A stretch of 64,000 nucleotides of DNA from assembly GCA_028534125.1 (NCBI GenBank), contig CM052841.1, positions 67,518,001 through 67,582,000 of the forward strand, given 5' to 3'. Shown piece after piece: positions 22,244 to 60,893 of this stretch. The DNA is from Lama glama (lineage: Eukaryota). The stretch's first letter is position 1. Every line of letters begins with the position of its first letter. The translations under genes and the position numbers were made by a program. Under the pieces are notes generated by a model. That model searched no databases, was not told the DNA's origin, and worked only from the letters and a program-made list of their open reading frames with translations.

Positions 22244-23888
22244 GACAGAGGCATGTGTGACTGTCACTGAAGGTGCACCCCACGTCCTTGGGGAGAGCTG
22301 GAGCTCTGAAAGCTGTGCTGTCTTCTGCTGCCTAGACCCCTGACCTACGGTGGCCCCCAAGACTTCAGGAGAAGCTGGCCTTCCCAGTGTGGGGCGGGGC
22401 TGGGGGCTCAGGGAGAGTCCAATAGAACTTCTCTCTCACTGAGACATAGGACAGTAAAGGGCCAGCTCTCCAGCTGAACCAGCTCACACGACTCACAAGT
22501 CATACACGTTCCCCAGATCGTACGTGGGGTTTTACAGGGAGGAAAAACAACAGCAACGAGGAACCGTGAAAGCCAGAGGAGCATTTCTGCTGCACTTCAT
22601 GTGTCTCGTCCTTTTCCGGTGCAATATTTAACACCTCGAAGAGCACACGGGGCAAACAGGGGGCCTGAGGGCCAGAAGCGCCCCAGCGCCCCACCACCCA
22701 GCTCAGGGGGCAGCATGGGGCCATCTCAGCAAACCTCCCCTCTACCCCCTCCCCTCCCTTCCTGTTCCCAGGGTGACAGGAATCAAAGGGCATCTGGGGA
22801 ATTTCAGCCCGGTCTGGGGGGGGTAACGGGAGACAGGGAGCATGGGGGTCCCCGACGTGCTTCGGTACCACCGGCTGAGTTATTTGCTCGAAGGGGATGG
22901 GGATGGCTTAGGGCTTGGAGGCCTCCTGATCCACCTCCATTGCTCTTTAAAGCTAGCCCTACTGCTCTTCCCGGAAGGGTTCTGAGCAGGGGGGCTTTCT
23001 GAGCTTGGGGAGCCTCATGGAGGGAGCTCCCACCTGCCACCAGAGCCTGGCAGGCTCCTGCTCCAGGGGGACCTCGCCAAGGCTCAAAGAAGTGGAGGCA
23101 GAAAGGCAGCTCCCAGAGGCCGTCCCAGGGCAGGGGCCCTAACCCCTCATCCTCTGCCTGCTGTCACCTCCCAGAGGGGTGTCTTCTTTGCTTTCCTTTT
23201 CGATGCAAAGGGGTCAGCAGACAGTAGGAGGAAGCGAGGGGGGAGGGGCTGCCGGCTAACTTCGCCTGATTAATATCCCAGATGTGTGGCATCCGAGCTC
23301 CCTGGGGACCTCCTGGGAGCCTAGACCTCAGCTGGGGCAGGAGAAGCTGGGGGGCGGTGGAGGGCGGGTCGGCTGTCGGGGTGGACATGTCTGCCACAGC
23401 CTTGGGCGCCCCGATCTGGCTGGATTGGAAGTTCAGCCTCCACCCAGAAGAGGAGCTCTGTACTCTTGCAAGTGAAAGAAAAAGTTAGGCGGGGGGAACT
23501 GCAACTTTTCTAGCCCCAAACGGTGGCAATCAGGGCCCCTCCACGCTGCTTCTCGGGCTCGGCCGGGTGCAGGCACCTGGGGCGGGGAGCGTGGGGGTCC
23601 CGAGTGGGCTGCCGGGCTCCGACCGCGCGCACTCGCCGAAAGAGCGGGGACGCCGCGCGCGCCCTGAGTCAGCTCCCGCCCCGGGCCGGCCCCTTCCCTG
23701 CTGCCACTCGCCCGCTGTCCCCACCCCCTCGCCCGCGGCGCCCAGTGGGAGGCGGGGGCCGGCCTGGCCGAGCCCAGCGCCCGCTCTGATTTGCTGCGGC
23801 CGTGGGGGAGCGACAGCCTCCGCGGGTGCCTTCCAGGGGAGAGGGAGGGAGGGAAAGGGGGAGAGTGCTCGGCGCCCAAGGCGAGGTC

Positions 23889-30110: not shown

Positions 30111-31309
30111 CCCTCTCACTGTGTCACTGTTATGTCCTCCCTGGGCCCTGAGGCGGCAGGAGGCAGTGGGTTTGGGGCCCGGTGGGAGTTCCTGGCTCTG
30201 CTCACTGGCTGGCCTTATGAGTGGCTCCCTCTGTCCTGGGAATTTTCACACTGGTGCCTCCTCACGTGTAAGCAGCAGAGGTGACCCGGGAAGTGCCCAT
30301 GGGTGGGTTTATCTGACCCCTTGCCTGAGCGTGGAACTTGCATCCTGGGGCAGTCATGGGACGTTTCATGGTCAGCACACCCCTCCCTTTCCCCTTGGAC
30401 CACTCTCTACTTCAAGGAGGAACTAGGGCCCAGTGATAGGAATGGATGTGCCTACATCCTGCCTCCAGGGCTGTGGTCTTCCCTCTGAGACAGGACCGTG
30501 AGCGATGGCTGACCATCTGAAGGGCGCATCCAGGATGGGTCCCCGCAGGGACTTTGCTAACTCAGACGCCATTACTTTCCCAGCCCGGCCCCAGGCGGCT
30601 GGAACGGGGTCCATAGAATGAGTAAATTCTTGGTCAGATGTGTGTGGCTTCGCGGTGGGCGCTGGGGCACTTTGTGTCACGTACATCCCACGGTCTGGGC
30701 CATCATCCTGTTAGCTTCGACTCACCCGCTGGCTTTTCAGGCAGATTCCCAACCTAAGGAATAGCCCGCACGAGGAGTAATGTCGCCACTCTTTGGTGAC
30801 TCAGACCTAAGAAATGGGAACACAGTCTGACCTACTTTTCTCCAAATTTCGTTACACAGAGCTCCAGGGGTAGGCGCCCACCCTGTTTCCTGTGATGCTT
30901 CTGCGGGTGAAATGGGAGTTCCTTTGTTTTCTGTTTCCTAGGCCTGTGTCCTTTCGGGAGGAAACCCGTTCTTCTGTCCTGTTGTTTCCTGCCAGCACCT
31001 TTGCAATAGGGATTTTACTGGCCTCTTTGATTTTTTAAGGAAATGCCAAAAGTGACATTGAAATGTGTGTACGCAGTGGGAGTGATCTGACTGTAAAAAC
31101 TCTGACCCTTGTGTTGGAAAAATAGCGATCTGTCAGTGCAGAAGAGCGAGCATTTCAACCTGAATGGAGGTGGGAAGCGACTGTCTTGCATTCTGCCGGC
31201 AGGGTGACGGGAGGGTGGCGGGCGAGGCGTTAGCGGGGATCCTCCCTGGGTGGCGGCGGGGGACCTCAGGGGAGGCTGGCCCCTGTGTGGAGAACTCGGG
31301 GCTGACTGG

Positions 31310-31465
31310 CTGTGTTTCGAGTGCTTGTGGACCTCTAACACGAGTCAGGCCTGTGCCAGGTATGGACAGCAGGTGCACAGGTGAGCAGGGGGCGAGCACC
31401 CCTGCCCTGGGGGAGCTTCTGGTGCACTGCAGGAATCAGACTCCTGAACAGGTGATTGTATCTGG
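31310..31465 (-). mobile_element. L2 3'-end remnant directly upstream of the minisatellite
   Basis: GAGTCAGGCCTGTGCCAGG...ACAGGTGAGCAG...CCCTGCCCTGGGGGAGCTTCTGGTGCACTGCAGGAATCAGAC resembles an antisense L2 end. Confidence 0.55.
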
Positions 31466-31500
31466 TGAAGTGCAAAGTGGGAGGTAGTGAAACACTCACC

Positions 31501-31890
31501 AGCCAATCAGAGGGAGGCACCCGCCAGCCCCTGGGCCACTGGCTAATCAGAGGGAGGCACCCGCCAGCCCCGGGGCCACTGGCCAATCAGAGGGAGGCAC
31601 CCGCCAGCCCTTGGGCCACTGGCCAATCAGAGGGAGGCACCTTCCAGTCCCTGCACCACTGGTGAATCAGAAGGAGGCACTGACAGGTCCTGGGCCACTG
31701 GCCAATCAGAGGGAGGCACCCGCCAGCCCCGGGGCCACTGGCCAATCAGAGGGTGGAACCCGCCAGCCCTTGGGCCACTGGCCAATCAGAGGGAGGCACC
31801 CGCCAGTCCCTGGGCCACTGGCTAATCAGAGGGAGGCACCCGCCAGCCCCCTGGGCCACTGGCCAATCAGAGGGAGGCACCTGCTAGCCC
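31501..31890 (+). repeat. 40-bp minisatellite, ~9.75 copies, consensus GGCCAATCAGAGGGAGGCACCCGCCAGCCCCTGGGCCACT
   Basis: Units start at 31501, 31541, 31581, 31621, 31661, 31700, 31740, 31780, 31820 and 31861 (partial). Unit length 39-41 bp. Confidence 0.97.
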
Positions 31891-32937
31891 AGTGGGGCTC
31901 TGGCCAGGCGGATACCAGCCTGTCTTGTCAGGGTCTGGCTTTTGGGGTCCCACCCCATGAGTTTGAAGGGAGGTGTCGCTTGTGGACGCAGGTGGCGCTT
32001 TCCCGTGTGTGCCCTTCCCCTGGTGCTGTTCATATGTAAGCAGACCCTGCTCTGGTCTTACCTGTGCAGTGCCCGTGACCCCCACACCTGCCGGGACAGG
32101 CGCAGAGGCGGCTGTGAGCCCAGCAGGCCCGAAGGAGTGACGGTCGCCCTCCGCCTCCCAGGGGAAGGCACACCGGTTACCGGCGTGTGTGCTGCTATTA
32201 GCTGCCGTTGTCACAGCCAGGCCGGGGGCTCTGGCAGCTCCTGGCGCCTGTTCGCTGTGGGACAGCCCCGCGGCGGCAGGGTCCTTGTGCTTCAGGAAGA
32301 GGCCCCCGGCCGCCACCAGCCGTGAGTAGCCTCTGCCCCTCCGCCTGGATTCCTCCTCCTCCGTTTCTGACGCGTAAAGCTGGGAGTGCGGCGTAGGCTC
32401 AGCTTGCTGAACGTCGAGGCCTTCTTTGGGAGGACAGCTGTGAGCCAGTGGGCCCTGGGGCCCTGGACCACGTGGGTCAGTGCAGGAGCCTGTAGGGTGG
32501 CAGGTGTCCTGCACAGGGGAGGGTGCGGTGGGGAAAGAAAGACCGGCCCTGAGCCCCAGGCTCAGTTTGTGAGGGCCCCGCTCGGGGGGCGGTGTCTGCT
32601 GGGGTGGAGTTTCTGGGACCCGTCTTTACAGTCACGTCTCTTCTTTTGCACTCTTCTTTTTCCTTTGGGGAGAATCTGAAACCTTTCCTTCTTTGAGGCT
32701 GTTCTGTGTCCTCCTGGGACAGGAGGTCGAGGAGGCAGCCTCCATTGTCAGTGTTCAGTCTAGAATTTGCTCTTCTAGGGGGAGAGGGTCCCTCGACTGG
32801 TTGCTTTCATGCAAAGAAGGAGGAAGGGGGCTGCATCTTCCGTAGCTCATGGACCAGAAAACGTTCACGTTGAGCAGGTGGGACGAAGAGCATGTTCTTG
32901 GATGGAAGTGCAGGGAACAGGGTTTCTAAGTGTAATT

Positions 32938-33108
32938 TTTTTTTAAATTGTAATAATTTTTTAAAATTTCATTTAAAAAATTTGGGGGGGGAGGGAGATA
33001 ATTAGGCTGATTTATTTATTTTTAGAGGAGGTGCTGGGGCTGGAACCTGGGCCCAGGTCCCTGTGCACGCCGGGCCTGTGCTCTGCCACTTGAGCTACAC
33101 CCTCCCCC
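32938..33108 (-). mobile_element. Vic-1-type SINE with target-site duplication
   Basis: TAATTAGGCTGATTTATTTATT...CCACTTGAGCTACACCCTCCCCC. Direct repeat AAGTGTAATT at 32928-32937 and 33111-33120. Confidence 0.87.
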
Positions 33109-54758: not shown

Positions 54759-54926
54759 CTCAGCCAGCAGATCTCCTGAAGGTTCTAGATTTTCACAACT
54801 TGCCTGACGGCATAACCAAGACCACAGGCTTTTGTGCAACGCGGCGATCTTCCAAAGGCCCGGACGTGGCTTACAGAGTCACAAAGGACGCCCAGCTCAG
54901 CGCGCCCACCAAGCAGCTGTACCCTG
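54759..54926 (+). CDS. COL5A1: COL5A1 exon 2 (168 bp): [56 protein letters not shown]
   Basis: Acceptor ctctgtcatttcAG|CT and donor CCCTG|GTaaga. Phase 1-1. The peptide is the start of the mature alpha1(V) N-propeptide. Confidence 0.98.

Positions 54927-60377: not shown

Positions 60378-60893
<516 letters not shown>

Follow-up and report, generated by a model that had tools for sequence, protein, structure and literature searches.

A minisatellite of about ten 40-bp units lies in intron 1 of camelid COL5A1, and seven of its units carry an intact, co-oriented CCAAT box of the NF-Y type. The repeat is young and variable, since a relative that is about 5% diverged has about three units and unit content is not the same even among near-identical animals; both observations are new. 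On balance we favor a reading in which the array grew from about three older units, would be bound by NF-Y in certain cells, and changes COL5A1 output little.

The array and its setting in COL5A1

The array occupies positions 31502..31906 on the forward strand of the window (the whole 64-kb stretch of DNA analysed), where Tandem Repeats Finder (TRF) reports a period of 40, 10.1 copies, 86% matches and a score of 603, together with a weaker higher period of 159 bases. This agrees with the roughly ten 40-bp units described in an earlier note, which gave the extent as 31501..31890; the location stands, and the true end is 16 bases further on. The units are head to tail at one locus and within the 10–100 bp range of a minisatellite or VNTR, with a GC content of 0.69 and a CpG observed/expected ratio of 0.19. 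The seven intact boxes (GCCAATCAG) span 31503..31867 on the forward strand, with CCAAT at 31503, 31583, 31623, 31702, 31742, 31782 and 31863 and gaps of 80, 40, 79, 40, 40 and 81 bases between successive boxes. Broken boxes are present in the three remaining units (CTAAT in units 2 and 9, TGAAT in unit 5), and all of these assignments are as the earlier note had them. CCAAT boxes with NF-Y flanks are thus present in seven of ten units, a unit content of the type known at human ABO, and the word AATCAGA is unchanged in all ten. Units 4–5 (31620..31698, forward strand) are degenerate, with 6–12 and 8–15 differences from other units.

The motif RCCAATCAG has seven matches across the window, every one inside the array, compared with a mean of 1.28 and a maximum of 5 in shuffled sequences, a test that exaggerates the surprise as the seven boxes are copies of one site and represent one event. 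Among non-array 40-bp pieces of the window, RCCAATSR is found in about 0.5% and CCAAT in 3.2%. The GC-box core CCCGCC, which had been noted in most units, is present in seven of ten, although there are no array matches to KGGGCGGRRY, the fuller GC-box pattern of the Sp literature, so the CCAAT boxes lack the adjoining full GC box of an NF-Y/Sp composite module. Similarly, the likeness of the unit junctions to the NFI palindrome with a single mismatch holds at four of the nine junctions, while two others require two mismatches. The 40-bp spacing corresponds to 3.8 helical turns, so the boxes do not lie on one face of the DNA. G-quadruplex potential is weak (G4Hunter-type score −1.04 to 0.88, mean −0.05). 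A lone GAATCAGA in window 31429–31499, 71 bases ahead of the first unit, is possibly a decayed earlier unit.

The identity of the host gene, previously proposed to be COL5A1, is confirmed by the exon 3 reading frame (60678..60893, forward strand), which is 100% identical to Vicugna pacos collagen alpha-1(V) and also to a Camelus ferus protein. Exon 2 (54759..54926, forward strand), preceded by AG and followed by GT, is taken to belong to COL5A1 from its peptide and its position ahead of exon 3; it closes intron 1 and lies 22.9 kb 3′ of the array, placing the array within that intron. Gly-X-Y exons are found further downstream (L138–L140). The COL5A1 start codon is not readable in the 64-kb window, and Pfam and PDB searches with single exons gave no match. 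The CpG-rich COL5A1 promoter contains CAAAT on the reverse strand (23789..23793; ATTTG on the forward strand), matching the CCAAT-like NF-Y site of mouse Col5a1, and the array begins 7.7 kb past it.

The array sits 1.38 Mb short of the end of its contig, which measures 68,930,959 bases. In 459 kb around COL5A1 there are 18 tandem arrays (TRF, period 15–100, at least 3 copies), some of which are simple repeats, and two of the 18 have a unit with CCAAT. A second NF-Y-box minisatellite (L148:9423-9564, at C26:67711423) lies 162 kb downstream, beyond the collagen exons found, with a 25-bp unit and 5.6 copies; its right flank resembles, at 60%, the right flank of L183, one of the genomic loci described below, so it is probably an old dispersed repeat.

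Variation between animals

Variation was examined in assembled contigs of 8 of 24 listed sequencing runs, six of DNA (X1, X2, X3, X9, X12 and X14, representing organisms A–D) and two of RNA (X15 and X17). The six DNA runs differ from the window by only 0–2 letters in 632 bases of left flank, and their array interiors differ. Two forms of the junction ahead of the last unit (31851..31862, forward strand) are present: X1, X2 and X3 have the form seen in the window, X9, X12 and X14 have one resembling the 11-letter junction of the diverged relative, and both occur within organism A. Contig depth, a rough measure here taken from the contigs listed, also varies. Relative to the flank, the 31691–31730 piece has a depth of 7.1 in X9, 3.6 in X12 and 2.1 in X14 (the window predicts 2.4), and the 31502–31543 piece has 4.3 in X9 and 3.9 in X12 (the window predicts 1); from the contigs listed, X9 exceeds the window by at least 2.2 units. 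The degenerate units 4–5 are covered at about one copy in X1, X2 and X3 and at 0.6 in X14. The lower figures for X1, X12 and X14 come from the contigs listed and are no evidence of shorter alleles; holes in cover (units 4–5 in X9 and X12; unit 7 in X1–X3 and X12) were likewise rejected as proof of missing units.

A further difference is seen in the two RNA runs, which come from two studies. In each, one bridging contig joins 31571 to 31863 via 11 other letters, such that seven inner units (31572..31862, forward strand) are absent and about three remain. The source of these contigs has 60 flank differences from the window in about 1,310 bases, and we infer that it belongs to the other camelid tribe. 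At least two CCAAT boxes seem to be kept in it, as expected anyway at 5% divergence. Unit number or order thus differs between alleles, as seen in the bridging contig, the two junction forms and the unequal depths, and the earlier suggestion of variable copy number is borne out by this contig comparison both between animals and between lineages.

The short form retains both terminal units, and a junction like its own survives in some of the close animals; about three older CCAAT-bearing units would therefore be the ancestral state, a polarity drawn from two lineages. The simplest reading is that this ancestor expanded in the window's lineage, likely by unequal exchange and gene conversion. Growth would reflect the turnover common to minisatellites close to chromosome ends, and in some alleles the junction would have been overwritten afterwards. 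A deletion in the relative, rather than expansion in the window's lineage, is a possible alternative.

NF-Y-box arrays in the genome and the origin of the unit

A triple of CCAATCAG, with words 20–50 bases apart, has 663 matches in the genome and none for its reversed control. Most of the 100 listed among the 663 belong to a dispersed family (L106–L135, for example L128:1208-1786) of approximately 550–600 bases with about 80% pairwise identity and 4–7 tandem CCAAT boxes spaced about 23 bases apart. Most copies examined begin TGTTG, an octamer word is present in the seven copies examined for it, and a TATA word was not found by pattern; the family has the look of solo LTRs bearing an NF-Y array similar to that of LTR12. 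Further single-locus CCAATCAG minisatellites with a 31–32-bp period are present at C4:105872660, C4:102692150 and C3:41861982, and a repeat on five small unplaced contigs (L063–L067, 97–100% identity) is perhaps a satellite or a collapsed duplication.

The stricter GCCAATSAG triple has 16 matches at 14 loci (L176–L191), the COL5A1 array among them. Twelve of the 14 are TRF arrays whose units share little except the box, and several of the 14 are no more than 6 Mb away from one end of a contig. Six single-base mutant motifs together yield five loci, of which one is a simple repeat and another is an array also holding CCAAT words. The GCCAATSAG monomer is not commoner than its controls (6 compared with 30, 26, 7, 8, 7 and 27 in 463 kb; 2 compared with 0–2 in 122 kb). 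The binomial probability for 14 of 19 loci is 8e-9, with a motif chosen from the COL5A1 finding itself; excluding the COL5A1 locus, L181, L183, L186 and L188 leaves 9 of 14 (p=2.5e-5), a count that retains L177, which is inside a dispersed repeat. NF-Y boxes are thus over-represented in arrays although the single word is no more frequent than its controls, and pure chance is probably not what placed the box in the COL5A1 unit.

NF-Y motifs are prominent in the open chromatin of male germ cells (PMC11802806), which makes a germ-line route for seeding plausible. A less likely possibility, put forward tentatively, is that germ-line sites held open by NF-Y undergo tandem duplication far more frequently than similar words do, so that new, unrelated CCAAT arrays would arise repeatedly. 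That the COL5A1 array arose in this way, observed at a stage between three and at least ten units and possibly acting as a dial, is a doubtful extension. Since some of the GCCAATSAG loci resemble promoters (CpG observed/expected up to 0.80) or old LTRs, selection at such loci could explain the excess as well as a mutational bias such as seeding. The genome-wide excess offers the more general lead.

An LTR relic could also account for the unit, the CCAAT units having arrived with a retroelement end-repeat that has since decayed beyond recognition, and having later expanded in place; this concerns origin and is compatible with either view of function. Of the 14 loci with triple boxes, at least three are in dispersed repeats (L177; L183 with L188), the dispersed CCAAT family itself carries tandem boxes, and transposons are the source of 23% of human minisatellites (PMC3389668). 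Two other loci found with a pattern of the box plus the CCCCTGG-CCAC unit end are homologous to each other (69 compared with at most 31 for shuffles) and share the order of the unit, that is, CCAAT box, gap and CCCCTGGCCAC, but they are not homologous to the array flanks. Against such an origin, the array is a single-locus repeat: DNA searches of the genome with it recovered no second locus, and an exact 18-mer of the unit has six occurrences in the genome, all within the array. Looser patterns gave 15, 25 and 3 matches elsewhere, none of which reaches into the flanks, so that these patterns lend a dispersed-repeat origin no support; the reversed controls for two of these patterns and for the GCCAATSAG triple contain CpG, are unfairly low, and were left unused. 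A search for orthologues in other mammals via metagenome contigs returned 38 matches, the best being 43 bases at 81%, and none extends into the flanks. There is no homology between the array and the dispersed CCAAT family, L192 and L193 are no better than shuffles, and no flank match is found in 739 kb. All of these comparisons are pairwise and so weak for very old repeats, and we regard an LTR origin as rather unlikely. One kilobase past the array, window 32971–33108 resembles, at 68–71%, stretches of L113, L130 and L132 that do not belong to the CCAAT family, and is therefore another dispersed repeat.

Regulatory readings and known systems

Little effect on COL5A1 is the most likely state of affairs, in our estimate a probable but by no means assured one. 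The array would bind NF-Y in some cells, with seven copies raising the odds, and its effect on COL5A1 output would likely be small. Where the chromatin of human cells is unmodified, Polycomb or transcribed, about 20% of good motifs are occupied by NF-Y, and no histone mark and negligible Pol II are seen at 49% of NF-Y sites (PMC3730095); as NF-Y often occupies apparently inactive sites, binding here is plausible and is not proof of function. Of 33 listed substitutions relative to the diverged relative, 13 are CpG-type transitions, seven of them at the 53 flank CpGs, and this share points to methylation of the region in the germ line.

The earlier note proposed that the array is a copy-number-tunable enhancer, every unit being an extra NF-Y site that adds to transcription from the main promoter. 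The seven good NF-Y words, the genuine variation in unit content, the NF-Y-type site in the COL5A1 promoter, the reporter precedent at ABO, and the enrichment of NFYA/B ChIP sites at human variable tandem repeats (PMC12366377) are consistent with this. However, we found no evidence of activity, and the array has no full GC box, its spacing puts sites on different helix faces, about three units suffice in the relative, and the in vivo effect at ABO is disputed. The box is also broken in three of ten units, and no protection of it is seen: variant alleles at the 9-base box are 3 of 27 over 41 columns (p=0.13), or 3 of 18 with inner units only (p=0.42), both comparisons being of low power. An enhancer of this kind is thus unlikely, and unit number as a dial for a dosage-sensitive collagen gene we consider improbable. 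As loss of one COL5A1 copy causes classical Ehlers-Danlos syndrome in people, a unit number that did set COL5A1 output would have a possible bearing on skin and tendon traits.

The other function suggested in the earlier note is that of an internal or antisense promoter, which the NF-Y cluster would drive. This reading draws on the fact that several co-oriented CCAAT boxes are a promoter feature and that LTR12 works in this way (PMC3730095). Again no evidence of activity was found. There is no CpG island at the array, as its CpG ratio indicates, and there are no TATA or polyA words on either strand in 30501–33000. The X15 and X17 RNA contigs cross the array with no splice joint and no loose end, the only joint being the deletion, although these are from the three-unit relative and a reproductive-tract sample, could contain DNA, and are uninformative on starts, strand and level. 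We regard such a promoter as highly improbable. Mouse Col5a1 ATAC peaks at +644, +48085 and upstream (PMC7810463, Table 3) were considered as evidence on the array site and rejected, as they are a selected set and uninformative there.

The same gene and factor are involved at the mouse Col5a1 core promoter, whose CCAAT-like (ATTTG) NF-Y site has been tested (Sakata-Takatani 2004, as cited in PMC5768380); the NF-Y dependence stated in the earlier note is therefore in print. The matching site in the window is that at 23789. The mouse site is, however, a single promoter site, and it accounts for the known NF-Y dependence without an intron array. NF-Y-bound LTR repeats (LTR12/ERV-9 E3, the R66 tandem repeat and MLT1) share tandem co-oriented CCAAT boxes with the array, and NF-Y can occupy such boxes in inactive chromatin (PMC3730095), but these are dispersed retroviral copies, whereas neither an LTR nor a second copy was found for the COL5A1 unit. 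The human variable tandem repeats with NFYA/B ChIP enrichment also link NF-Y sites to copy-number-variable repeats, but this is a genome-wide enrichment of ChIP peaks, and the section on it neither names a COL5A1 locus nor tests for causation (PMC12366377). BORIS-MS2 was rejected as a precedent, because its CCAAT box is in the promoter and not in the repeat. A literature search, short on subscription journals, recovered no description of a camelid COL5A1 array and no study testing whether NF-Y seeds such repeats. The earlier suggestion that the repeat is undescribed thus holds for the locus in the literature searched and fails for the kind, as ABO has the same design and 13 other triple-box loci are present in the same genome.

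The closest known case is the human ABO minisatellite, in which 43-bp units at about −3.8 kb bind CBF/NF-Y; its repeats raised reporter expression in one cell line but were inactive in erythroid lines, and transcript levels are normal for a B allele that has lost three units (as given in PMC11318969 and PMC7187371, which cite Kominato 1997). The two are alike in having a unit of about 40 bp with one CCAAT box, a position several kilobases from the start, and an allele-dependent unit number. They differ in that binding and reporter activity have been measured at ABO, whereas the COL5A1 array is known from its sequence, and in that the ABO repeat is upstream, with four units or no tandem repeat, whereas the COL5A1 array is intronic, with a unit number of about 3 to 12 or more. 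The likeness to ABO is one of design, and membership of the array among enhancers is putative. CCAAT minisatellites are a kind already known, and the COL5A1 locus itself is new. The locus can serve as a length marker for camelid COL5A1, and its range of about 3 to 12 or more units constitutes a natural allelic series for asking whether NF-Y repeats alter expression, the question under dispute at ABO.
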